From contig NC_085844.1 in the NCBI RefSeq assembly GCF_035594765.1, forward strand, positions 209,886,107-209,950,106: 64,000 nucleotides of DNA, in the 5' to 3' direction. Shown one piece after another: positions 7,810-60,744 of this stretch (within the stretch, counting starts at the first letter, position 1; every line of letters starts with the position of its first letter). The translations under genes and the position numbers were made by a program. The notes beneath the pieces were generated by a model that saw only the letters and a program-made list of their open reading frames with translations, had not been told where the DNA came from and did not search any database. This DNA comes from Anolis carolinensis (Eukaryota).

Positions 7810-10287
7810 TATATTGTTATTTTGAAATTGATTGCATCAGGGATTCTTAGTTTTTTAAAATTTCATTATCTAGAGAAACAATCGAGTAGCTATAGCTATT
7901 CCTCCTGTTAGTGATTTTTGAAAATATATGCTAAGTGGCTCAAAATGTTCTAATATTTCAATAAGTTGAACCTGAAGAAGCTGCCACATAGGAGATTTAG
8001 CCCATGATTTGTTTTGCCCATTATATGACACTCTCAAATATTTCTATTTCTTTATTGGACCCATTGTGCTTGGTAATTAATGATTTGGCTCCTGTATAGT
8101 TTACCAGTATTTCCTTCTCAGTTGCATTATTTGCGACAACAGCTAAGAAAATTCAAGAAATGGGAAGTCAATTGCAAATATCAACATTTAATTTGAAAAT
8201 AAGTTTTAAAAAGTTTACTGTGAGTTAATACTTTTGTACAATGAAAACTGGGAAATTCAGCCAATTTTTAACGAGTATTTGTTAAAAATGTATTTATTAA
8301 CAAAATATTTATTAACAATGTATACATGCAGAATCAAAACAAAAGTCATGAAATGCTGGTGACAATGCGTCCATTGACAGGTCCTGACTGGGTTTAGGGA
8401 CAAATTGTTTCTCTTAGAAGTTCCGTCAAGCTTGTTTTGCAACAGAGTTGTAGAACCTAAAATTGGATTTATGTATGACTAGGTTTCTCACTGCAGAACA
8501 TCCATACCAGTCTCCCCCCCCCCCTTCCGCCCCAATATATGTCATAAAAATGGAATAAAAAGCTTGTTTCTATTTACTGAGATATTCTAGACTGTTTCTC
8601 AGTTATCAAATGTTACTAGTGTGCTTTTGGAAAGTAATGGCTAGATGTTTTTCCAAATCTTGCAAGGGTGGCATGTGCAAAGACATCTGTAACACTTTCT
8701 CCTATGTACACAAGTGTGGTTGGAGGCTTGGACAGCGGAAGCATTAACCTTAAGAGGGCTAAATCCAGATCTCCTCTTGACGTAGGCAGCGCAGATGGAG
8801 AATTAAAATTCCTCAAGCCCTTAAGCAAGCTCTGGAAAAGGAACTGTGAAAAGATGGCTTGTCACTGATTAGGTGATAAGCTGCTAATAGAGGTAAGTGG
8901 ATTTTAATGGATGAAATAGATAGGTCACCACCTTGTAGGTGTAACATCAGTAACTTCTAGAACAAGGGCAAACAAGCAATCCAAAGTGAACATTTCAAAT
9001 CATCTCCTTTTATTCCACTACATTTTTGGTCCTCAGGATAGTTTTTTTCTCCCATTACCCATGTATTTATTCTACTTCTTAGCCTCCTACCTTGTGCAAC
9101 AACCTATGTTTGCAATATTTCCTTCCTGTTTGTCATGGTCTTCCTTTTAACATATCCATTCCTTGCCAAGGTCTTAAGGAATGAAACCTTCCACAAAGCT
9201 GACCTATTAGATGCTTTCAGACTTCTTTCTTTTATACCCCCCCCCCACCCCAGAAAAAGAAATACTCCCACATGAATATTGAAGATAAATGATGCGGATT
9301 CAAAACTGTGATACAATATAGAAAATATCAAATTAACACAATTAGAGAAGTTGAGCTTTGATTAAAATATTCTTCACTGGCTGTCATATCTTTTGATAAG
9401 AAGTGTGTACAGGTTTGTTTATAGTAGTTCATATAAAAACCAGAACACTTGTAGTGACAGTAGAATAACAAAATTACTGCATTTCCTGTCCATGATTCCC
9501 AACTAACTAGCAATGTAAAGAAGAAGAAAAAAAAATTACTGTGATATACACATCTTGGCAACTTCTTCCATTGGTAGATCACCAGCTGAGGAGTTAGATG
9601 CATGAGCTCTTGACCCACCAAAAATCTATTTTATCACATTACACAATATGTTGAATAAGTAGTAGTAGTTGACCGTTTCACAAGGCCAGATATGTCATGG
9701 TTACTGTTCCAATGTAACTTGAGAATTCCCCAAAGCATGATATGTAGAGTACTATAGCATGCCATCAGAAATGTTCACAATTGCAATATTTGAAGATCAA
9801 GCACACAAAATTTTACACACTACCAGTCTCCACACTCTGCTGCAAGTATCACTGCCCTGTTATCAGTGTATGCAGCAGTTATCATGTCAAGATGGTATGA
9901 AAGCAAACTCCCAAACTATCCCACATTCTAGGAACCAAACAGATATTCCTCATATTTTAGGTAAAGACGCATGAAGTAGACCATCACATTATGCCATTTT
10001 AACTCTGTGTTGATATATTAACTGCTTTGTATATGATCTGGAACAAACCTTTTTGCTCTTTCCATGCGTAAGTGTATAAAATAGACACGTGTGTTTGATT
10101 TAAGTTTCCAGACCAAAAAGCCAACATAAAACACAAATGTATTCATCTTTTGAATATCACTTTGTCATTGTCCTGTGTCAGGTTGCATTCTGTTAGCTAA
10201 AATGGCAGTATAATCTTCATCGCTAACTACTTTAAGTTTATAACAATAATTCTTTTCCATTGTAACATAGTATATTTACTCATAAAT

Positions 10288-11461
10288 TGTTATGGTTGAG
10301 CCTTCTGGCTCCGATACTAGGAGACGTGGTCGTAAGACTCCTCGAGAGTCAGACTCTTTTGAGGAGCGTGAAAGGAAACGGCTCCGGGACTTATTTGCAG
10401 AACCAACAGATGAAGACTCATTTGAGGGTTTTACCGAGGGAATGGAGGAAGAGATGGTTAGCTCAGAGGAGGATGACATGGAGTGGACCCGTGTGAGGGA
10501 GGATTTGGGTGTCACCGGCAATGATAGCATGGGAGGCAATTGGCGGGTTGCAGGATCAGACCCATGGACGGGCTGGAGGGATGGAGCGGGATCCACAGCT
10601 GGGGATGCTGTGGGGCGTAGTCAAAGGTGTTTTAGCTCTGATGAGGATGATGATGATGAGGCACCTGGAATTAGGATAGCAGCTGACAGCGATGAGGAGT
10701 TATGAACTGGGATAAAATGGGGTTTAGGATCAATGGCTAATTGCGTTGGGCAAGGTAATCTGGACGAACGCTTGGGCTCTTGTTGGGGAACTTCCTGAAG
10801 ACGGGTGTGATTCGTTGCTGGATACGTAAGTTACCAAGGACACTGGGCATAGACGGCGGGAGGAACTGTGTGGGGTTTTTCTGTGCAACTTGTGTTTAAT
10901 CTTGATAGCTTGGACCTCCGTCGTCTTTTTGACGGACATTAATTACCTACTCTGGATTGACGCTGGACTGACTGACTGACTACGACCCTGGACTATCCCT
11001 TCTGTGGCTATCGGTGGAACTTGTGGACGTCTGCACTTGGCTTTCGACCTTGGACCGGATTGGGACCCATGCTGACCGTCGTTACCCTGATTGATGTGCC
11101 TGGACCCGGATTTCGCTCGTTGCACGGAGGAGTAAACAGCCTGAGTTACTCAACTGTAGCTTTTGAGTAGCAGAGAGGAATCTGCTGCCAGTTTTTTGTG
11201 TTAATTTTGACCTCTGTTTTCCAACTTTTGTTTGTTTAAATTGTCAGGCTGAAGTAAGCACTTTTGCTTTAATCCGGATTAAACTCCTGTTTAATCCGGT
11301 TTATCCTTTCGAACCGTTTTAATTCAAACGGAGCTGTTTCTGTTACTTTTCACACTGAAGACAAGTGTTTGCCTAGTCCTTTGCTTCCTACGGGCATTTC
11401 TTAGTTCTGTAACTTTAATAAACTGTGTTGTACTCTATTTGGTGGCATTCTGTCTATGACA
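10288..11461 (+). mobile_element. Solo LTR of an LTR retrotransposon (Gypsy/BEL-like), 1174 bp
   Basis: TG...CA ends (TGTTAT...ATGACA). Perfect 5-bp TSD TAAAT (10283-10287 / 11462-11466). TATA-like GATAAAA at about 10711 and AATAAA at 11417-11422. GC/CpG-richer than the flanks. Confidence 0.88.
10292..10705 (+). CDS. LTR-embedded ORF, 137-aa basic/acidic disordered protein with TIM/IBM-like motif (DLFAEPTDEDSFEGF)
   Basis: Uninterrupted ATG-to-TGA ORF starting at base 5 of the LTR and ending just before the TATA-like box. Basic N-terminus (RRRGRK), acidic tracts and an FxGF motif. Expression is not demonstrated. Confidence 0.5.
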   Translation: MVEPSGSDTRRRGRKTPRESDSFEERERKRLRDLFAEPTDEDSFEGFTEGMEEEMVSSEEDDMEWTRVREDLGVTGNDSMGGNWRVAGSDPWTGWRDGAGSTAGDAVGRSQRCFSSDEDDDDEAPGIRIAADSDEEL

Positions 11462-11480
11462 TAAATATCATTGAAAAGTG

Positions 11481-20444: not shown

Positions 20445-22363
20445 CAGGGCCGGCCCCACTCATGCGGCAGCTGACGCCGCCGCCTCGGGCGCAGGCCCGG
20501 GGGGGCGCCGTCAGGCTGGGCGGGAGGCGGGGCACCGCCCTGACGGTGCCCCGCCTCCCGCCCAGTGCGCCCTGGCCCGTCTGGCCTGCTAGAAAAGGCC
20601 AGACGGGCGAGCGGGGGTAACGTGGGAGGCGGGGCCAGCTCTGACGCCGCCCCCCCCGCCCAGCGTGCCCTGGCCCCGCCTCCCACGTTGCGTGGGGCAG
20701 GGCCAAGGCACGCTGGGCGGGGGGGGGGGGGGAGCGGCGTCAGAGCTGGCCCCGCCTCCCACGTTACCCCCGCTCGCCCGTCTGGCCTGCTACACAAGGC
20801 CAGACGGGCGAGCGGGGGTAACGTGGGAGGCGGGGCCAGCTCTGACGCCGCCCCCCCCGCCCAGCGTGCCCTGGCCCCGCCTCCCACGTTGCGTGGGGCA
20901 GGGCCAAGGCACGCTGGGCGGGGGGGGGGGAGCGGCGTCAGAGCTGGCCCCGCCTCCCACGTTACCCCCGCTCGCCCGTCTGGCCTGCTACACAAGGCCA
21001 GACGGGCGAGCGGGGGTAACGTGGGAGGCGGGGCCAGCTCTGACGCCGCCCCCCCGCCCAGCGTGCCCTGGCCCCGCCTCCCACGTTGCGTGGGGCAGGG
21101 CCAAGGCACGCTGGGCGGGGGGGGGGGGGAGCGGCGTCAGAGCTGGCCCCGCCTCCCACGTTACCCCCGCTCGCCCGTCTGGCCTGCTACACAAGGCCAG
21201 ACGGGCGAGCGGGGGTAACGTGGGAGGCGGGGCCAGCTCTGACGCCGCCCCCCCCGCCCAGCGTGCCCTGGCCCCGCCTCCCACGTTGCGTGGGGCAGGG
21301 CCAAGGCACGCTGGGCGGGGGGGGGGGGGAGCGGCGTCAGAGCTGGCCCCGCCTCCCACGTTACCCCCGCTCGCCCGTCTGGCCTGCTACACAAGGCCAG
21401 ACGGGCGAGCGGGGGTAACGTGGGAGGCGGGGCCAGCTCTGACGCCGCCCCCCCGCCCAGCGTGCCCTGGCCCCGCCTCCCACGTTGCGTGGGGCAGGGC
21501 CAAGGCACGCTGGGCGGGGGGGGGGGGAGCGGCGTCAGAGCTGGCCCCGCCTCCCACGTTACCCCCGCTCGCCCGTCTGGCCTGCTACACAAGGCCAGAC
21601 GGGCGAGCGGGGGTAACGTGGGAGGCGGGGCCAGCTCTGACGCCGCCCCCCCCGCCCAGCGTGCCCTGGCCCCGCCTCCCACGTTGCGTGGGAGGCAGGG
21701 CCAAGGCACGCTGGGCGGGGGGGGGGGGGAGCGGCGTCAGAGCTCGCCCCGCCTCCCACGTTACCCCCGCTCGCCCGTCTGGCCTGCTACACAAGGCCAG
21801 ACGGGCGAGCGGGGGTAACGTGGGAGGCGGGGCCAGCTCTGACGCCGCCCCCCCCGCCCAGCGTGCCCTGGCCCCGCCTCCCACGTTGCGTGGGAGGCAG
21901 GGCCAAGGCACGCTGGGCGGGGGGGGGGGGGGGGAGCGGCGTCAGAGCTGGCCCCGCCTCCCACGTTACCCCCGCTCACCCGTCTGGCCTTTTGTAGCAG
22001 GCCAGACTCAGCGGAGGTTCCTCCAGGCCGCAATCGCGGCCTGGAGAAACCTCCGCTGAGTCTGGCCTGCTACACAAGGCCAGACGGGCGAGCGGGGGTA
22101 ACGTGGGAGGCGGGGCCAGCTCTGACGCCGCCCCCCCGCCCAGCGTGCCCTGGCCCCGCCTCCCACGCTGCGTGGGAGGCGGGGCCAGGGCACGGGGGGC
22201 GGGGCCAACTCTGGCCCCGCCCCCTCACTATTCGCCCTGGCCCCGCCTCCCACGCAGCGTGGGAGGCGGGGCCAGGGCACGCTGGGCGGGGCCAGGGCGC
22301 CGGTGGCGGGGGCGCTTTTCAGCGCCCCCGCTTTACATCAAAAAATATCTCCGGCCGGCCCTG
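20445..22363. mobile_element. Non-autonomous hAT transposon (Tip100-like termini) containing a GC-rich palindromic minisatellite
   Basis: TIRs CAGGGCCGGCC / GGCCGGCCCTG. Perfect 8-bp TSD GTTATTAA (20437-20444, 22364-22371). Confidence 0.9.
20575..22010. repeat. About 200-bp tandem repeat, about 7 units, each built of two inverted arms of about 100 bp
   Basis: The centre motif recurs at 20590, 20791, 20989, 21188, 21388, 21586 and 21788. Arms are reverse complements across the centres tggcctgctacacaaggcca and cccacgttgcgtggg. Confidence 0.92.
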
Positions 22364-33500: not shown

Positions 33501-36500
33501 GATAGAGTCAAAGGACAAAGAAAATATAAAGAATTGAATCATTCTCTACTTACGATTGATCAATTAAAATAATATCTGAATGGAAGAAAGTACTGTTCCC
33601 AGAGGGAGGGGGAGGGGGGAGGGGTGAAAAACTACTGGACATAAGTGGGAGATAAAAGTGGAACTAACAAGTGTAATGTTACCGAGAATATGTAATTGGT
33701 GTGTATGTTGATGGATTTTGTTGTTGTTTCGCTGATATCTACAATAAAAACATATTTTAAAAAAAAAGTAATGAGAAATAGTCCTTTCTCACACAAAACA
33801 CTATTTGGGGGGGGGGCACTTAAATCAGGGAAACAGCACAACAGAATTAAACCCAACATCACAGCTCCATCTAGCTTACTTCCTCTTCCTATATTTAAAT
33901 CTAGACTATCATGTCTCCTCTCAGCCTTTTCTTCTGCAGGCTAAACATGCCTATTTCTTTAAGACGCTCCTCAGAGGGCTTGTTCTCCAGACCCTTGATC
34001 ATTTTAGTTGCCCTCATCTATATTTAAATCTAGACAACAGTTCTAGTTATGGTTGTATTATGTCCAAGTGCGGCCATTAGTTTTCTTTCGTATATTTATC
34101 ACCATGACTGAATGGCACCATTCAGGAAAAAAAAAGGTCAACTTGTCTACAAAATAATCAGTAGATATCATTTTATTTACCTGTTGCAAAAATCGATCAC
34201 CACAGAGATCAACAATCAGTACCTAAGGAAAAAGGAAAAGATACATTATTATTGTATGCAGGATCAAATGCCTAAATTCCTCAAGTCCTTCAAACACTCC
34301 CAACCACTATACTGATTCTTATGGCCAGCTTCTTCTGCATGGTTAAGTTGAATAGTGGTTTGACTGCATACAACAGTTAATCGGAGCTGAGAATACTTGC
34401 TTTTATTGGATAACAAACAGGTCTAGAATCCCCCCACTCAACAAAGTTTATGAAAGTAACTTCTCTAGGCTGACACAGAAGAGGTCACCCAACGCAACAC
34501 TTCCTATTACTACAGTTTTCATTGATGGTTGGCCATCAGAAATGTGGCAAACTGTATTGTTTTATAGCTTTCACTTCAGTTGCAGTCTCTTGGGAAGGGA
34601 AGGAAGGATATATGAGAAAATCAGTATGTTCCAAATGAAAAAAAAAAGGTTAGGGAAAGGTCATCAAATCAGCATTTAGGCATTTCAGATGTTTAACAAG
34701 TCCTGCTTGGTTACATGAATGGGACCTTGGAAAAACAGCTCTATCAGTGAAAGAAAAAGAAATATTCAACTAGTATATTATACCAATGTATAAATGACAA
34801 TTCAGTGATAGAATAAAAAAGTTTGCTAAATTGAATAGGTCATATACACATTGCCATAAATCCTCAGTCTCCACCTCAATGTTTTGATGTCAATATCTCT
34901 TGCATTCCATTTCAAAGTCTTTTCAGGACTCACCTCTTCTATAGGTAAATCCTGGAGCTGGGGTAAGGAGCAGGAGAGAATCCCAATCAGGAATGGGGTG
35001 GGTGAGCAGACAATGTCTATCATGGAAGTTGGAAGAACAGGAATATAGGTGTGTTGCCAAGTGAATGGGTAAAGCGTTGCAACCACAGCATGGCCACATT
35101 TGGACAAGGTGCTGTAAGCAGAAAATATAACACAATTATATATTTATTAGTGTATGGTGTAATGGAAAAAAATCTTTAGACTAATGAATACAATTCATCA
35201 CACAGAACTATACAGTGGGACACGATTATTCGGATTTTTGGTTAAAAACTGCTAATACATCGCAGTTACAGGGCAGTCCCCGAGGTACAAACATCCGACT
35301 TACAAAAAAACCCTCATAGTTAAGAATGGGGCTAAGACAACAGAAAGCAAGAGAAATTAACCTTAGTATGCCCATAGTTACTTCCCTTTCCTTGTTATCC
35401 CTTTCCTTTTTTATAAGATTCGTATCCTGCCCCTTTTATGTAACCTACTTGAAAACTTCAATAAAAATTATTTTAAAAAGATACAAATTTAATTGTTCGT
35501 ACCTTGGGGACTGCCTGTATAAAGGTTTCTGAAATTCATAGTACCGCCTTAATATTCCAGAATTTGTATTATCTGAAGGTTGTGTTTTCTGATGTCTGCA
35601 TATGCACCAACAAGAAAAAGTACAAGCTTTTTGCAAGACAAATGGTTCAAAACCAGGAAACAGAACCTTAACTTATTGTCGAAGGCTTTCATGGCCGGGA
35701 TCACAGGGTTGTTGTATGTCTTTCGGGCTGTGTGGCCATGTTCCAGAAGCATTCTCTCCTGACGTTTCGCCCACATCTATGGCAGGCATCCTCAGAGGTT
35801 GTGAGGTATGGAGAAAACTAAGCAAAGAGGTTAATATATATCTGTGGAAAGTCTAGGGTGAGAGAGGTCAGTGTGAATGTTGTGTAGTTAATCACTTTAA
35901 TTAGCATTGAAAAGCTTATCTGCTGTCTTCTTCCTGCCTCTGGGGCATCCTTTGTTTAGAGTCGTTAACTGCCCTTGGTTGATTCATGTCTGGAAATCCT
36001 CTGTTTTCAGAGTATTGCTTTTTATTTACTGTTCTGATTTTTGACTTTTTTAATACTGGTAGCCAGATTTTGTTCATTTTCATGGTTTCTTCCTTTCTGT
36101 TGAAGTTGTCCACATGCTTGTGGATTTCAATGGCTTCTCTGTGTAGTCTGACATGATAGTTGTTAGAATGGTCCAGCATTTTTGTGTTCTCAAATAGTAT
36201 TCTGTGTCCAGGCTGGTTCATCAAATGCTCTGCTATGGCTGATTTCTCTGGTTGAATAAGTCTGCAGTGCCTTTCATGTTCTTTGACTCTTGTTTGGGCG
36301 CTGCGTTTGGTGGTCCCTATGTAGACTTGTCCACAGCTGCATGGTATCCGGTAGACTCCTGCAGAAGAGAGAGGATCCCTCTTGTCCTTCGCTGACCGTA
36401 GCATTTGTTGGATTTTCTTCGTGGGTCTGTAGATAGTTTGTAGGTTGTGCTTCTTCATCAGCTTCCCTATGCGGTCAGTAGTTCCCTTGATGTGTGGTAA

Positions 36501-39500
36501 GAACACCTTTCCTCTGGGTGGATCTTTGTCTTGACTTTCATGGCTTGTTCTTGGCCTTGCAGCTCTTCTGATGTCTGTGGTGGAGTATCCATTGGCCTGT
36601 AGAGCCCAGTTTAGGTGGTTGAGTTCACCTTGGAGGAGGTGAGGTTCAAATCAGAGGTCAAATCAGAAGCCCTCCCACCCAGGCTTTACGGACTCCCCAA
36701 AATCCACAAGGACTCCATCGCACTCAGACCCATTGTAAGTGCCATTGGATCGCCGACTTACAACCTGGCAAAATTTCTGGCTACACAGCTACAAACCCAC
36801 ATTGGGCTCACTGCACATTATATCAAGGACTCTACACACTTTATAGAAAAGATCAGCAACCTCAATCTAAGCACCAAGGACATCCTGATCAGCTTTGATG
36901 TGGTGTCCCTTTTTACCAAAGTCCCAGTAGCTGACACCCTCACACTAATCAAACAAAACTTCCCAGAAGACATCACAGCCCTGTTTCACCATTGCCTCAC
37001 CACTAGCTACTTTCAGTGGGACACTGGATTCTATGAACAGAAGGATGGAGTGGCCATGGGGAGCCCTCTCAGCCCAGTAGTAGCAAATTTCTATATGGAA
37101 TACTTTGAAAAACAGGCCCTAGAAACAGCACCAAAAAAGCCAACTGTTTGGTTCAGATACGTAGATGACACCTTCACAATTTGGAGCCATGGAGAGGAAG
37201 AACTCAGCAAGTTCCTGGACCATCTTAACAGCATCCACCCAAACATCCAATTCACCATGGAAAAAGAAAAGGAAGGAAAACTGCCATTTCTAGATGTTCT
37301 GGTCATCCGCAAACCCAATCAACAATTGGGCCACACAGTTTACAGAAAACCTACACACACAGATAGATACCTTCATAAAAACTCCAACCATCACCCAAGT
37401 CAAAAAAGGAGCACAATCAAAGCCCTGACAGACCGTGCACAAAGAATCTGCGAACCTCACCTCCTCCAAGGTGAACTCAACCACCTAAACTGGGCTCTAC
37501 AGGCCAATGGATACTCCACCACAGACATCAGAAGAGCTGCAAGGCCAAGAACAAGCCATGAAAGTCAAGACAAAGATCCACCCAGAGGAAAGGTGTTCTT
37601 ACCATACATCAAGGGAACTACTGACCGCATAGGGAAGCTGATGAAGAAGCACAACCTACAAACTATCTACAGACCCACGAAGAAAATCCAACAAATGCTA
37701 CGGTCAGCGAAGGACAAGAGGGATCCTCTCTCTTCTGCAGGAGTCTACCGGATACCATGCAGCTGTGGACAAGTCTACATAGGGACCACCAAACGCAGCG
37801 CCCAAACAAGAGTCAAAGAACATGAAAGGCACTGCAGACTTATTCAACCAGAGAAATCAGCCATAGCAGAGCATTTGATGAACCAGCCTGGACACAGAAT
37901 ACTATTTGAGAACACAAAAATGCTGGACCATTCTAACAACTATCATGTCAGACTACACAGAGAAGCCATTGAAATCCACAAGCATGTGGACAACTTCAAC
38001 AGAAAGGAAGAAACCATGAAAATGAACAAAATCTGGCTACCAGTATTAAAAAACTCAAAAATCAGAACAGTAAATAAAAAGCAATACTCTGAAAACAGAG
38101 GATTTCCAGACATGAATCAACCAAGGGCAGTTAATGACTCTAAACAAAGGATGCCCCAGAGGCAGGAAGAAGACAGCAGATAAGCTTTTCAATGCTAATT
38201 AAAGTGATTAACTACACAACATTCACACTGACCTCTCTCACCCTAGACTTTCCACAGATATATATTAACCTCTTTGCTTAGTTTTCTCCATACCTCACAA
38301 CCTCTGAGGATGCCTGCCATAGATGTGGGCGAAACGTCAGGAGAGAATGCTTCTGGAACATGGCCACACAGCCCGAAAGACATACAACAACCCTGAGAAC
38401 CTTAACTTATTTCTCACCTTAAACTGTCAGCAACAAAGATGACTCTCCTTTCCAGCAGGAGAGAAGCACAGACTTGGATCAAGTGAGAGACACTGAGACA
38501 CTTAAACAAATATTCAAAATCAACATGCTCCAACCGGGAGTCTAATGGGCGGCAAAGCTCGATCACCTGAAAACAAAGAGAAGTAAAGGAGTCACAAGGA
38601 ATTGCTGAGTTATTTTGTTCTGGTTGCTTTACAAAGGAACCCTAAGTGTTCGATGGCAGCTCAGTTGAGAGGCCGGGACACAGTCCAGAGCTTGTCCCAA
38701 AGAGGAGAGATAAAGGATGTCAATTCAGTACATTGTATGTGAATTGATTCCATTATTGCTTAGGTAAAAGGTAAAGGTTTTCCGCTGATATGAAGTCCAG
38801 TCGTGTCCGACTCCGGGGATTGGTGCTCATCTCCATTTCTAAGCCGAAGAGACGGCATTGTCCGTAGACATCTCCAAGGTCATGTGGCCGGCATGATTGC
38901 ATGGAGCACCTTCCCTTCCCTCTGGAGCAGTACCTATTGATCTACTCACATTTGCATGTTTTCAAACTGCTAGGTTGGCAGAAGCTGGGGCTAAGCTGCT
39001 AGGTTGGCAGAAGCTGGGCGCTCACTCCGCTCCCCGGATTTGAACCTGCGACCTTTTGGTCCACAAGTTCAGTAGCTCAGCGCTTTAACACGCTGCGCCA
39101 TCAGGGGCTCCCCATTATTGCTTACACTACAGGAAAACCAAACCCAAGACATTTTACTGCCTGAAACAGTAACAAATGGCACTCTTCCTGCAATACCAAA
39201 ACTCAAAGTATTACCCTCAGCCACCCACTTACTTTAATACTTGAAGTAAAAGAATCTTACAACAGCTTGTCCCTCTCTTTGTAACAATTACATTAATATA
39301 CATAAGTAACAACGTCCTGCCTTCTCACAAAGCCCAAGATTTTCTCACTTTGGGTAATACTGCTAAAAGATGGGGAGGATTGCAAGTGTAAGACATCATA
39401 TGGACACTTGTAAGACTCTGAGAACACAGCAAGGAGTTCACACGATCAAAGCCTGCCTGGAAGCACACATTGTTTTTGCTTCATTTACCTCATTTCCAGC

Positions 39501-58000: not shown

Positions 58001-60144
58001 AGCAAGAGAAAGCAAAGAGGCAGCATACACAAACTTTTGCCCTTTCTCCTCCATCTACTGCTTTCCAGAAGAAAAAAAGCATTTAATGACTAGATACATA
58101 TCAATAATAATCTATACCTTAATTCCGGAAACCCAAAGAGCCAGTGAAGTGACAAATAATTTAGAAACTTACCAATAATGTCCTCATAGAGGTTGTCCTC
58201 TGACTGTGTGCAATAGAGGCGGATATTTGTGGTGCCATTCAATTCCTCATGGAGTTTTTGGTACTCCATGGCTGCTAGTCGGTTTCGGTAACCTTGAATG
58301 TCCTCAAACTCAAATGACTTTCTGCAAACAAATCAATCTCGTAAGCCTCACGTGCAACAACGCAGCACAGCCTATCTATCTCCTATCTTCTGTTAAGGCT
58401 TTACTGCACTAAATAGAACTAATTGAAAGGTTAAATTTATGTCTGTGCACAAAAATGTTTTTTATACATTTTAACAAAGGTAATATTTATTATACACCAT
58501 TTCAGAAAGTTCAACTTTCATTGACCAGGTGTATAATAACAAAACAAAGCAGGAGGGGCTATTTTTATTTAGAATCTCTCAGAGCCATTCACGTTCACTA
58601 AAGGAATGAATAAACAGCAGTTATTGGTTCTATATCATCATTTTCAATCCTGGAGTTCTCCATATGACCAGGCTGTCTGAGTATGATAGAAGTTACTGTC
58701 CAACACATCTGGAAAGAACCAGATTAAAAAAGACTGTTCTACACCATGAATAGATACATGTGGAGGAAAGATATGAAAATCTCAATTTCCAAAAGCCATA
58801 ATCCAATGGAGAAGTAGACACACTTATGGTAAGTACCTCTGCTCAGAATTAGCTCTAGCTACTCACATCATGTGTTTTGTATTAGGAACAGCTGGAAAAC
58901 AACGTCTGTGGCTTAAACTTTTTTTTTGCTTTCCCTTTCATTGCAAATACAATAAAAACATTCATGCTACCCAGTTATATGTTTATGTAAGATTAAATGT
59001 GGTTTCCAACTAAAAATTTATAAATCTCCATACAAGAAAGTCAAAGACGATAACAGTCTTTGGTAAATATTGGCTCTGCACCTGGAAGTTGGCCCAAAAT
59101 ATTCACTTGCTGCATAACCTACCCCTTGCCAATATGGGAAATATATGTCTCAAGAGGGGAACATCTTTTAATATTGGTGAGGTTTTTTTTTGTCATAACT
59201 GCATTTTGACTGCTCTTAATGAAACAACAAAACCAATGACATTTGAAAAAAAGGCTATGTTCTTGCACTGTTTCTGCCATTTGGATATTTATAGAAGAGA
59301 TAAAATTAGTGCTTGATCAGTATTGGTGAAAAAGGTCTATATCATCAATTTAATAAATAAACGTAAATGAAAATAAACGGATAACTCACCTCTTGGATCT
59401 GCCTCGGATTCCTCGGCTGGCCACTTTCTGCTCTGGGTCATGGGAAGTTGCTCGAGAGCAACTGCCATTACAATGAGGTTCAGGGGGTTTCCTCTCAATG
59501 TGGCCTACATTAGAGCAGTTCAGATGGTCCTTCTCAGAATGATAACGGAAAGTCCTTCGTGGTTTGGGTACCGGATTGATGCCTGGAGGGTGCTCCTCGT
59601 GGCCCTCAACATCACAGTAGATGTTCTCCGAGCTCTTTGTTGGAGGTACCGTCAGGACCTTCTCTGTTGAGCCACAGCTTTCCCAACTCCCTTTCAAATC
59701 CAAAGCTACAGATGGAAAAGTTTCTAAGTGTTTCCAAAGGTCCCGTGAGGTATAGAAGTTTCCTGGTGGCAACGTTTCCCCTTGCCAGTTCGGACTGGCC
59801 TCTTCTTCACACAAAATGCCATTGAGGAGCTGCCCAACCCTGGGGTTCTCTGAAGCCTCTTGGAGTCTCTCATCGTCTTCCTCTGTCACAGAGCAGAGCA
59901 AAGAATTTTCCCGGAAATCTAAGCCGAGACTCTGAACATTTGCTCGTCCTATTGGCTTCCTTCTGCTGTCCTGGCCATACTTGACCCCAAAGTCCTTGGG
60001 TTTCTGCCTCTCCTCCTGGCAGTCCCCTGTTGTCCGCCCCTCCCACTGAGAGATCTTTTGCTTTATGTTCCGACAGTGGCTGCGAGAGAGAGTTTGCACA
60101 GCAGAACGTGAAAAAGTGGTGTCTATACTCCCCATGGGGTGCAT
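25054..60144 (-). CDS. DENND2C: DENN domain-containing protein 2C (Rab GEF), 18 coding exons, about 914 aa
   Basis: The exons listed individually sum to 2745 nt with GT-AG introns and consistent phases. N-terminus [18 protein letters not shown], uDENN-DENN-dDENN region ([53 protein letters not shown]) and C-terminus [10 protein letters not shown] match recalled DENND2C. Confidence 0.95.
25225..25478 (+). mobile_element. L2/SINE-type tail with (TAA)n interrupted by a mini Penelope pLTR fragment (about 25318-25431)
   Basis: (TAA)n at about 25269-25317 and 25432-25478 flank an inverted ttgtcgaaggctttcat plus a direct hammerhead-bearing pLTR end. Confidence 0.8.
26723..26809 (-). CDS. DENND2C: DENND2C coding exon 17
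   Basis: [28 protein letters not shown], 87 nt. Confidence 0.93.
27518..27765 (+). mobile_element. Sauria-type SINE, 5'-truncated
   Basis: cttctgccaacctagcagttcgaaaacatgcaaatgtgagtag body with (ACCTTT)n tail. Confidence 0.85.
27840..28079 (-). CDS. DENND2C: DENND2C coding exon 16
   Basis: [25 protein letters not shown]...[20 protein letters not shown], 240 nt. Confidence 0.95.
28165..28264 (+). mobile_element. CR1 LINE 3' end
   Basis: ggggttggactagatggccc...ccaactct followed by the (ATTCTATG)n tail. Confidence 0.8.
29047..29152 (-). CDS. DENND2C: DENND2C coding exon 15
   Basis: [35 protein letters not shown], 106 nt. Confidence 0.93.
29574..29884 (-). mobile_element. R4/Dong-clade 3' fragment inserted in the (TAA)n tail of a SINE
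   Basis: Near-identical to 4580-4938 with an internal deletion of about 45-50 bp. Flanked by (TTA)n at 29561-29573 and 29885-29937. SINE/L2-type tail at about 29475-29560. Confidence 0.88.
30505..30562. repeat. (CT)n microsatellite
   Basis: Seen directly. Confidence 0.9.
32012..33766 (+). mobile_element. L1-clade LINE, 5'-truncated ORF2 C-terminus, 3' UTR and poly(A)
   Basis: 15-bp TSD AGTAATGAGAAATAG (31997-32011 / 33767-33781). [16 protein letters not shown] and GGWGAPNL motifs, plus the CWHGC...H.WW zinc knuckle in ORF 32559-33572. G-rich 3' UTR, AATAAA and A-tail. Confidence 0.9.
33900..34015 (-). mobile_element. CR1 fragment (degraded)
   Basis: tcagccttttcttctgcaggctaaacatgc...tccagacccttgatcattttagttgccct is the reverse complement of the CR1 segment at about 47700-47810. 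Confidence 0.6.
34181..34222 (-). CDS. DENND2C: DENND2C coding exon 14
   Basis: [14 protein letters not shown], 42 nt. Confidence 0.92.
34934..35111 (-). CDS. DENND2C: DENND2C coding exon 13
   Basis: [59 protein letters not shown], 178 nt. Confidence 0.95.
35269..35518. mobile_element. Tigger/pogo-like MITE
   Basis: TA-flanked TIRs cagggcagtccccgaggtac / gtaccttggggactgcctg. Confidence 0.65.
35758..35798 (-). ncRNA. Minimal type I hammerhead ribozyme motif (Penelope pLTR), sense to DENND2C
   Basis: The minus strand reads cct-CTGAGGA-tgcctgc(catagat)gtgggc-GAAAC-GTC-agg. Confidence 0.7.
36658..38183 (+). CDS. Penelope RT/GIY-YIG endonuclease ORF (N-terminally truncated, frame intact)
   Basis: About 508 uninterrupted codons with RT and GIY-YIG motifs. 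It lacks a native start. Confidence 0.75.
38301..38341 (+). ncRNA. Minimal type I hammerhead ribozyme motif (Penelope pLTR)
   Basis: cct-CTGAGGA-tgcctgc(catagat)gtgggc-GAAAC-GTC-agg: CUGANGA/GAAA core, stem II, palindromic ACGT minimal stem III and GUC cleavage triplet. Confidence 0.7.
38418..38566 (-). CDS. DENND2C: DENND2C coding exon 12
   Basis: [49 protein letters not shown], 149 nt. Confidence 0.95.
38763..39111 (-). mobile_element. Sauria-type SINE, full length
   Basis: tRNA-like head and (ACCTTT)n tail. 13-bp TSD CCATTATTGCTTA (38750-38762 / 39112-39124). Confidence 0.9.
39489..39629 (-). CDS. DENND2C: DENND2C coding exon 11
   Basis: [47 protein letters not shown], 141 nt. Confidence 0.95.
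40684..40885 (-). mobile_element. Old tRNA/CORE-type (MIR-like) SINE
   Basis: gtgaggtag...ggctga...ggcccaaggtcac...gggatttgaa core pattern. Confidence 0.6.
41668..41802. mobile_element. Short hAT MITE
   Basis: TIRs cagtggttcacaacctt / aaggttgggaaccactg. Perfect 8-bp TSD ATCTAGAA. Confidence 0.9.
42035..42112 (-). CDS. DENND2C: DENND2C coding exon 10
   Basis: [26 protein letters not shown], 78 nt. Confidence 0.95.
42417..42486 (-). CDS. DENND2C: DENND2C coding exon 9
   Basis: [23 protein letters not shown], 70 nt. Confidence 0.95.
43164..43273 (-). CDS. DENND2C: DENND2C coding exon 8
   Basis: [36 protein letters not shown], 110 nt. Confidence 0.95.
43320..43540 (-). mobile_element. 5S rRNA-derived SINE (SINE3-type), degraded
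   Basis: gtctcgcatccaagtactaatcag...cctgcttagctcc is the reverse complement of the 5S internal control region. Second copy at about 55872-56073. Confidence 0.7.
44395..44580 (+). mobile_element. Old tRNA-derived SINE with RTE-type tail
   Basis: ctggagaccagaggtcggattcc B-box-like motif, ctcagcctcagaggaaggcaa core and cttgaaggcacaa tail. Confidence 0.55.
44755..45421 (+). mobile_element. L2 LINE 3' fragment with (GTT)n(TTA)n tail
   Basis: [20 protein letters not shown]...[15 protein letters not shown], then ccctgagtccc tail and microsatellite. Confidence 0.88.
45540..45718 (-). mobile_element. Non-autonomous Helitron (179 bp)
   Basis: On the minus strand: host A | TC...GCCACAGCAACGTGTGGC hairpin...CTAG | host T, with no TSD. 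Confidence 0.8.
45998..46468 (-). mobile_element. tRNA-derived SINE with L2-type tail (long form)
   Basis: Head ggctgtggcgcag...gagttcgaggccagc. Tail gatccgccctgagtccccttcggggtgagaagg + (TAAA)n. Confidence 0.85.
46726..47037 (-). mobile_element. Sauria-type SINE
   Basis: Same family as 38763-39111. Confidence 0.85.
47201..47388 (-). CDS. DENND2C: DENND2C coding exon 7
   Basis: [62 protein letters not shown], 188 nt. Confidence 0.95.
47655..48134 (+). mobile_element. CR1 LINE 3' fragment
   Basis: [45 protein letters not shown], and (ATTCTATG)n tail. Confidence 0.9.
49673..49717 (-). CDS. DENND2C: DENND2C coding exon 6
   Basis: [14 protein letters not shown], 45 nt, with cag/gtaagt boundaries. 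Confidence 0.88.
50367..50463 (-). CDS. DENND2C: DENND2C coding exon 5
   Basis: [32 protein letters not shown], 97 nt. Confidence 0.93.
50839..51145. mobile_element. Tc1/mariner MITE nested in an older Tigger-like MITE (about 50819-51412)
   Basis: TIR cagtagagtctcacttatccaac with TA TSD. The flanks continue the family seen at 7321-7809. Confidence 0.85.
53932..54242. mobile_element. Tigger4/Zombi-like (pogo) MITE
   Basis: TIR caggttgagtatcccttatcc / ggataagcaatgctcaacct with TA TSD. The sequence resembles recalled mammalian Tigger4/MER46. Confidence 0.8.
54486..54906. mobile_element. Tc1/mariner (Tc2/pogo-like) MITE
   Basis: TIRs ccatgtttccccgaaaataagaca / tgtcttattttaggggaaacaggg with TA TSD. 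Internal ctaggtcttatttt repeats. Confidence 0.85.
55083..55253 (-). CDS. DENND2C: DENND2C coding exon 4
   Basis: [57 protein letters not shown], 171 nt. Confidence 0.93.
55872..56073 (-). mobile_element. 5S-derived SINE, degraded
   Basis: Homologous to 43320-43540. Confidence 0.6.
56242..56556 (+). mobile_element. Short 5'-truncated L1-type retrotransposon 3' end
   Basis: 15-bp TSD AACATTTCCCATTTC (56227-56241 / 56557-56571). Pyrimidine-rich 3' UTR, AATAAA and A-tail. Confidence 0.7.
57409..57515 (-). CDS. DENND2C: DENND2C coding exon 3
   Basis: [35 protein letters not shown], 107 nt. Confidence 0.92.
58173..58321 (-). CDS. DENND2C: DENND2C coding exon 2
   Basis: [15 protein letters not shown]...[11 protein letters not shown], 149 nt. 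Confidence 0.92.
59390..60144 (-). CDS. DENND2C: DENND2C first coding exon (the exon extends to an acceptor at about 60285, including 5' UTR)
   Basis: [40 protein letters not shown]...[11 protein letters not shown]. gtgagt donor at 59389 and tttcctgcag acceptor at 60286. Confidence 0.9.
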
Positions 60145-60744
60145 GGCAGGCAGTTCAGCTACATTTACTCCAGCATGCTGCCTCCCAACTGGCTATCAGA
60201 GATTTGTAATCCCAAGAATCAAGGCTTCATTGATCTGAGTAATCCAAACTTTCTACTGGAAGGTGAAGCATAACCAGATGCCACTCTGCAGGAAAAGCCA
60301 AAGACAGAAAGAACATCCATCAGAAGGGAGGAAGAAAACAGTTATGTTCAGCACCAACATTTGCAAAATCTGTTAACCTTTAAGAAGTCACAAGTCTCAT
60401 TCTACCCTCACTCCCTAAAGTTAATTTAAGTGCATTTCCACATGTTATATAGCATTAACGACAGTTTACAACTCAAAATTCATCTTACAGACAACTGCGG
60501 CCAACTTCAGTGTCTGATAAGTAAATCAGTATACTACATGCAAACATCCTTCTCCCACATTTTATTTTTGGCTAACACACAAAAAATGCCAAAAATGTGA
60601 ATGGTCCCTAAAGACACCTTTCTTCTCTCAAAGCTAGGAAACAAAAAGGAGTCTAAAACTTTCCAACTTGTGCAGAAGATTGGCATTTTATGATTCATGT
60701 ACTTCTGTTTCCCTAAATCCTGATGAAACTTGGTGTAGAAGCAC

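Follow-up and report, generated by a model that had tools for sequence, protein, structure and literature searches.

The Solo LTR and Its Reading Frame

We analysed a stretch of 64,000 nucleotides from the lizard Anolis carolinensis (NCBI RefSeq assembly GCF_035594765.1, contig NC_085844.1, positions 209,886,107 to 209,950,106 of the forward strand), which is called the window below. It contains a solo long terminal repeat (LTR) that carries an open reading frame (ORF) of 137 codons, beginning with an ATG at base 5 of the LTR and stopping just short of a TATA-like box. Residues D33 to F47 of this ORF resemble the TND-interacting motif (TIM), also called the IBM (IBD-binding motif, after the integrase-binding domain, IBD), through which host proteins dock onto the TND (TFIIS N-terminal domain) of LEDGF (PSIP1), HRP2, and related proteins. 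Here we show that in the parent retrotransposon this ORF forms the final portion of the C-terminal tail of integrase, and we propose that its motif may serve as a tether to LEDGF or HRP2.

A preliminary description, made from the letters of the window, had reported the LTR with its TAAAT duplication, the ORF, the motif, a basic patch, and acidic stretches with CK2-type sites. All of these features were found to be real (Table 1). The CK2-type S/T-x-x-D/E sites include T39, S57, S58, S115, S116, and S133, among others. A Pfam search with the 137 residues returned no family. From a genome search with the LTR, 40 of the 2379 candidates were scored, all of them 95–100% identical, and 30 were fetched, with the window copy among them. 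The five-base-pair duplication is exact in 26 of these 30 copies; a frame of 137 or 140 codons is open in 26 and broken in four. A purine tract preceding one of the fetched copies led to the parent element.

Table 1. Features of the solo LTR, in window coordinates
Feature	Position	Strand	Remark
5-bp target site duplication, left (TAAAT)	10283–10287		
Solo LTR, 1174 bp, TG..CA, Tf1/Sushi-type Gypsy family	10288–11461	+	
137-codon frame in U3	10292–10705	+	in parent elements, last part of the integrase C-terminal tail
Basic patch, residues 10–15	10319–10336	+	putative, resembling a nuclear localization signal
Predicted helix, residues 23–35, ending on F35	10358–10396	+	single-sequence model, mean pLDDT (predicted local distance difference test) 57
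TIM/IBM-like motif D33–F47: end of the helix, acidic linker of 8 residues (CK2-type site at T39), FxGF	10388–10432	+	
TATA-like box, ~30 nt before the putative start	10712–10718	+	putative function
11 nt complementary to the primer-binding site of the parent element	10743–10753	+	putative RNA 5′ end (self-primer)
AATAAA polyadenylation-type signal	11417–11422	+	
5-bp target site duplication, right (TAAAT)	11462–11466		

The Parent Element

Full-length copies measure ~6.3 kb and consist of two LTRs flanking ~4.04 kb of internal sequence. A gag region with a zinc knuckle is followed, in a shifted frame, by pol, in which the Pfam domains come in the order protease (PR), reverse transcriptase (RT), RNase H (RH), integrase (IN), and a Tf2-type SH3 domain (GPY/F). 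An acidic tail of 168 residues comes directly after the SH3 domain. Two patterns that join the polypurine tract to the LTR gave 205 and 1139 matches in the genome, and a codon pattern for the core of the motif gave at least 5468, with none for the controls. The family is young, because the LTR pairs are 99.2–99.7% identical in the 13 elements, of 20, in which they were measured. UniRef and RefSeq records of A. carolinensis are 98% identical to a natural copy of the element. A tandem array with shared LTRs and a period of ~5.2 kb was observed at Anolis C1:26.75–26.77 Mb.

In 16 of 20 elements, the primer-binding site (PBS) has its complement at nucleotides 452–456 of the LTR of the same element; the search for exact 10-mers missed three elements, and for one no PBS was found. 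Self-priming has been described for Tf1/Sushi elements (PMC6317226). Given the location of this site, the RNA would start at window position 10743, ~30 nt past the TATA-like box, and because this putative start follows the stop codon, the ORF would lie wholly in U3. The ORF would travel on RNA by way of the 3′ LTR of full elements, and the promoter of a solo LTR would not transcribe it. As a probable relic of recombination, the solo LTR of the window would be silent, and its ORF, which lies upstream of the presumed start, is probably not expressed from it.

The order PR-RT-RH-IN with a Tf2-type SH3 domain, the shifted frames of gag and pol, the PBS complementary to the LTR rather than to a tRNA (by which the element would prime itself), the five-base-pair duplication, and the chromodomain-bearing relatives are shared with the Tf1/Sushi (V-clade) chromoviral Ty3/Gypsy elements, and the parent is accordingly taken to be a Tf1/Sushi-type Gypsy retrotransposon, presumably self-priming. 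It differs from them in its acidic tail and in the chromodomain: none (PF00385) was found in the family, the tail following directly on the SH3 domain in young and old subfamilies, so the structural definition of a chromovirus, a chromodomain at the integrase C-terminus, does not cover it. An RT-RH-IN tree was built from 29 rows, 2 partial rows being set aside, and held no named Sushi or Amn reference; in it, the family is nested among chromodomain-bearing relatives, in a 10-row clade with all of the lizard-named rows (Shimodaira–Hasegawa-like approximate likelihood ratio test, SH-aLRT, 99).

The ORF Is the End of Integrase

In 20 of 21 junctions, no stop interrupts the frame between the SH3 domain of integrase and the ORF, the polypurine tract included; the remaining junction has a stop eight codons upstream. 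A larger set of 48 junction copies was analysed from 49 loci, one of which failed the pattern match. The SH3 signature lies in the frame of the tail in all 48, the tail is 137 residues long in 43, and the motif is intact in 44. Pol continues across the tract into the 3′ LTR without a change of frame, and the ORF is therefore the final segment of the integrase C-terminal tail, encoded by the LTR; in relatives, this place is taken by the chromodomain. The preliminary description had named a C-terminal extension of an internal ORF as an alternative, and this alternative is the correct one.

Its first proposal was a separate small protein made from the LTR, solo copies included, in the manner of retroviral sag or nef. 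The ATG at LTR base 5 would suit such a protein, as would the frame being open in 26 of the 30 close copies of the LTR. However, the ORF has no frame of its own separate from pol, the putative start site falls after the ORF, an ATG is found at that position in none of eight old junctions (see below), and the close copies are 97–100% identical, so that open frames are expected even without selection. We therefore consider a separate accessory protein very improbable. In four runs, whose contigs are only presumed to be derived from RNA, none of the fragments listed bridges the tract–LTR junction and no common splice joint stood out, so that these runs bear on expression in neither direction. Automated RefSeq models (XP_062830654.1 among them) comprise the end of an ORF resembling that of a long interspersed nuclear element (LINE) fused to the LTR frame, and a 261-residue SH3-plus-tail protein.

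Selection and Recurrence of the Motif

The dN/dS ratio (w) was determined from variants common to at least three of the 48 copies and was found to be 0.05 for integrase, 0.09 for the SH3 domain, 0.59 for the linker, and 0.37 for the tail; rare variants of the tail gave 0.75. The shared variants of the tail comprise 56 synonymous and 56 replacement changes (p = 3e-7 versus neutral). For the motif (residues 28–48), w is 0.15, with 18 synonymous and 7 replacement variants, compared with 38 and 49 in the rest of the tail (Fisher p = 0.022). The preliminary description had named D33, F35, F44, G46, and F47 as the residues on which selection should be concentrated, and in the 48 copies no shared replacement occurs at any of these five, with shared synonymous codons present at D33, F44, G46, and F47. 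Shared frameshifting indels number 34 in the 712 nt of noncoding LTR but only one in the tail, at the stop codon. The tail is under purifying selection, and this selection is strongest on the motif.

These data bear on another explanation, a neutral read-through into U3 in which the motif arose by chance from promoter DNA rich in purines. A further Anolis family has a frame that also runs into its 3′ LTR but no full motif, as this explanation would allow. However, the synonymous excess among shared variants, the preservation of the frame against the 34 noncoding frameshifts, and the failure of any of 20,000 shuffles to reach the score of the motif (see below) are contrary to it. Neutral read-through is largely refuted by the selection data and is, in our estimate, scarcely credible.

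The motif is also recurrent in older copies. Divergent subfamilies found with the motif pattern keep the upstream helix, which is absent from the pattern, and some have extra copies of the motif. A motif-blind search for the tract and the LTR start gave eight old, decayed junctions, of which six retain at least one full FxGF motif; of the others, one shows a G-to-D change and the last is truncated. Four of the eight carry two or three motifs in tandem. The identity of old junctions to the window copy was 13/20 and 15/20 within the motif versus 38/98 and 53/117 outside of it. The young subfamilies keep one motif, and their tail residues ~65–85 (window 10484–10550) resemble a decayed second copy.

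Likeness to Host TIM Proteins

A TIM consists of a helix, an acidic linker of 8–16 residues, and an optional FxGF (PMC9987994), for which the published core consensus is D/ExExFxGF (PMC8022399). All known partners of the LEDGF/HRP2 TND are described as carrying and needing FxGF (PMC9987994). The motif of the element has a linker of eight residues, four of them acidic, together with T39 and S43. A low-confidence single-sequence model ends the helix at L34–F35 and leaves the rest as coil. With no other secondary structure modelled and no Pfam family, the motif appears to sit in a disordered region. The exact consensus, with E at the second position, is present in 25 of 47 copies.

The Anolis genome has a CDCA7L-like gene, assigned by its position upstream of zf-4CXXC_R1 exons and presumptively named, that holds two TIM-type motifs. 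Residues 30–47 of the element align with the first of these without a gap, with an ungapped BLOSUM62 score of 48; the corresponding score for a sister subfamily is 61. None of 20,000 residue shuffles attained a score of 48 (the maximum was 38), and two of 20,000 matched a TIM regular expression. Among 1,493,864 translated residues, this expression matched only the element family and the two host motifs. The likeness to CDCA7L asserted in the preliminary description thus holds for motif 1 of the lizard gene, with which the comparison was made. With respect to capture from CDCA7L versus convergence, 30 of 54 nucleotides are identical over the motif. A PDB sequence search with residues 23–70 returned two chance matches and no TIM entry, and an Atlas search returned only SH3 look-alikes below 0.9. 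A genome pattern with a nine-residue linker gave 12 matches versus 26 in the control and was set aside as background. Mimicry of the TIM, as originally suggested, is well supported by sequence, selection, and recurrence.

Other Families and Lineages

A loose regular expression flagged eight of 174 integrase homologs, of which seven are real; most of the homologs have no motif. The eighth, P0047, was dropped as a motif-bearer, its tail being a fused membrane-protein sequence. In at least four pol proteins of Podarcis muralis (P0012, P0184, P0185, and P0040) and in P0042, one or two motifs of the form helix-acidic-F/L/MxGF come after a chromodomain-like unit. The motif was found in 0 of 50 integrase tails from metagenomes. 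In the RT-RH-IN tree, the motif-bearers of Anolis and Podarcis fall in one clade with motif-less lizard families and not together, and a tree that holds them together was rejected (approximately unbiased test, p-AU 0.014, on a quick tree). This pattern reflects either two gains, an exchange of tails, or one gain with losses.

An Anolis chromodomain family found with the Podarcis tails has an acidic LGF/MGF stretch in its LTR-encoded tail but no FxGF and was rejected as a TIM. Beside the family of the solo LTR, a second abundant Gypsy family of Anolis has a canonical chromodomain, and its frame likewise continues into the 3′ LTR, across a tract junction that is closely alike. An acidic LGF/MGF stretch is present in this tail, which ends in a conserved basic motif of the type RRS(A/L)RI, reminiscent of nucleosome acidic-patch anchors. 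A third family (P0010–P0017, UniRef) ends ~10 residues past the SH3 domain, with neither chromodomain nor tail, and in this lack it resembles the plant CRM group B.

Predicted Binding and the Proposed Tether

The complex of Anolis PSIP1 402–490 with tail residues 21–56 was predicted with a score of 0.42, whereas the best control scored 0.01. The contact agreement was at least 92% and the partner pLDDT at least 59, and the grade given by the tool is weak. Among solved pairs, 51 of 78 attained this mark, as did 2 of 108 mismatched ones, and all four false passes fall at scores of 0.60 or less. The score may reflect only likeness to solved complexes (6EMO, 6EMP, 6EMQ, 6EMR, and 5YI9). Modelling with the PSIP1 IBD, one of the checks proposed at the outset, thus separates the motif from its control, but in a weak range and for a pair whose counterparts have been solved. 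We regard binding of the motif to a TND protein as probable. An intronless copy of PSIP1 at Anolis C2:143718346–143718648, with a stop inside the IBD, is a processed pseudogene; the intron-bearing gene lies at C2:235.4 Mb.

Acidic-aromatic motifs of chaperones bind histone H2A-H2B, and acidic tails with aromatic anchors serve many partners. The conserved motif could thus bind a partner of this other kind, its likeness to CDCA7L being a convergence in form, and the weak complex score, whose controls comprised no unrelated acidic binders, would be compatible with this. However, both parts of the TIM, the helix anchor and FxGF with the eight-residue linker, are conserved and duplicated as a unit, and the alignment with the host motif far exceeds the shuffles in score. 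Such a partner is, in our judgment, quite unlikely.

The reading that we favour, with a probability of roughly 0.55, is that the motif is a LEDGF/HRP2-binding tether on a retrotransposon integrase, where it replaces the missing chromodomain. We base it on the in-frame fusion to integrase, the lack of a chromodomain, the match to the host motif, selection, tandem duplication, and the Podarcis motifs. Gag-Pol would be made by frameshift and processed such that integrase keeps the tail. The TIM of the disordered tail would then dock on the IBD of LEDGF or HRP2, and phosphorylation of T39 by CK2 could strengthen the docking. The docked tail would tether the pre-integration complex to the chromatin that is read by the PWWP domain, and insertions would be drawn to H3K36me2/3 chromatin. 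We are less sure of a clear insertion bias toward gene bodies.

Several points weigh against the tether. The 48 copies are not independent (a single tandem array contributed three of them), and each variant was scored as a distinct codon instead of being placed as an event on a tree. With the tail overlapping U3, regulation may account for some of the constraint. In the window copy, the second E of D/ExExFxGF is a D, though FxGF is present, and F35 is replaced by L or C in many divergent copies of the motif. The reading also assumes that integrase keeps the tail after processing. Finally, a test fixed beforehand compared the 10-kb flanks of 30 insertions of the motif family with those of 30 insertions of a chromodomain family. 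Strand asymmetry did not differ (median absolute TA of 2.21 versus 2.23, p = 0.56), absolute TA+GC gave p = 0.75, and GC, CpG, and repeat fraction likewise showed no difference. Strand asymmetry is a noisy, low-power proxy for gene bodies (known genic stretches gave 0.5 to 11%), so this test, which showed no trace of targeting to gene bodies, counts neither for targeting nor decisively against it. The steering into transcribed genes suggested in the preliminary description is thus not borne out by any bias in this proxy.

The motif may instead bind LEDGF/HRP2 or another TND protein for a purpose other than site choice. It could increase the activity of integrase or keep the complex nuclear; released as a cleaved tail or made as a short SH3-plus-tail product, it could also recruit elongation factors or counter silencing. 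All of the sequence and selection evidence fits these roles equally well; there is no flank bias, the Podarcis elements keep a chromodomain-like unit beside their motifs, and RefSeq has its 261-residue models. However, those models are automated, and a subgenomic RNA is hypothetical. Moreover, the motif sits where the targeting domains of relatives sit, namely the chromodomain, the CR motif of CRM group A, and the tail of murine leukemia virus (MLV). A role outside targeting is therefore unlikely in our view, though it is the strongest competitor of the tether.

Other Features in the Window

Exons of a DENN-domain gene, presumably DENND2-like, lie on the minus strand at 34931–35122, 38420–38572, and 59389–60192. 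Between the first two of these intervals, at 35698–38401, there is an RT-like ORF with a GIY-YIG-like end, which we assume to be Penelope-like, with a 950-nt inverted duplication of 99% identity. A GC-rich tandem repeat of ~200 bp with internal inverted symmetry occupies 20500–22300.

Comparison with Known Systems

If the tether is real, it would represent an independent route to LEDGF; integration tethered by LEDGF is described as a lentiviral feature that works through a folded pocket. It would also exemplify, in nature, the mimicking of a TIM by a mobile element and, in a single clade, the swap of one targeting module (the chromodomain) for another (the TIM). With at least 5,468 motif-coding LTR copies and a chromodomain-bearing sister family in the same genome, targeting can be tested with existing annotation. 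A broader proposal, to which we give somewhat less than even odds, is that lizard Gypsy elements have at least twice equipped the tail of integrase with host-type LEDGF-binding motifs, sometimes in tandem, either instead of the chromodomain or in addition to it; by mimicry or capture of a CDCA7L-type motif that may be switchable by CK2, they would have reached the lentiviral strategy, in which LEDGF/HRP2 tethers integration to transcribed chromatin.

The helix, the phosphorylatable acidic linker, and FxGF are shared with the host TIM/IBM proteins CDCA7L/JPO2, IWS1, KMT2A, POGZ, MED1, and DPF3a, and JPO2 and IWS1 have tandem copies of the motif, as do some subfamilies of the element (PMC9987994). 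The motif of the element differs in that it rides on the integrase of an actively spreading retrotransposon; POGZ is a domesticated DNA transposase but a host gene (PMC4176367). Lentiviral integrase has the same predicted host domain and, if the tether is true, the same outcome. However, it binds through a pocket of the catalytic-core dimer, whereas the element has a linear copy of a host motif in a disordered tail, and LEDGF binding is described as lentivirus-specific among retroviruses (PMC4176367). The integrases of Moloney murine leukemia virus (MoMLV) and Ty5 are similar to the Anolis integrase in that a short motif in a disordered tail tethers them to a chromatin protein, the extraterminal (ET) domain of the BET proteins and Sir4, respectively (PMC4176367). 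The Anolis motif and its predicted partner are different, and the Anolis tail is encoded inside the LTR. In the plant CRM group A, the chromodomain is replaced by a putative targeting (CR) motif and the coding region reaches the 3′ LTR; the CR motif is linked to centromeres (PMC3059260).

In the literature searched, which was read at the level of abstracts and did not extend to Repbase notes, journals behind a subscription, or the original TIM papers, no retrotransposon integrase was found to be described as carrying a TIM. Under viral mimicry, the available text of a review on TNDs lists lentiviral integrases alone, and the string "transpos" does not occur in it (PMC9987994). Each ingredient has a precedent, in the chromodomain-replacing motif encoded in an LTR, in the integrase tails that bind chromatin readers, and in LEDGF tethering, and the Anolis element is probably a real and undescribed variant of tethering by an integrase tail.
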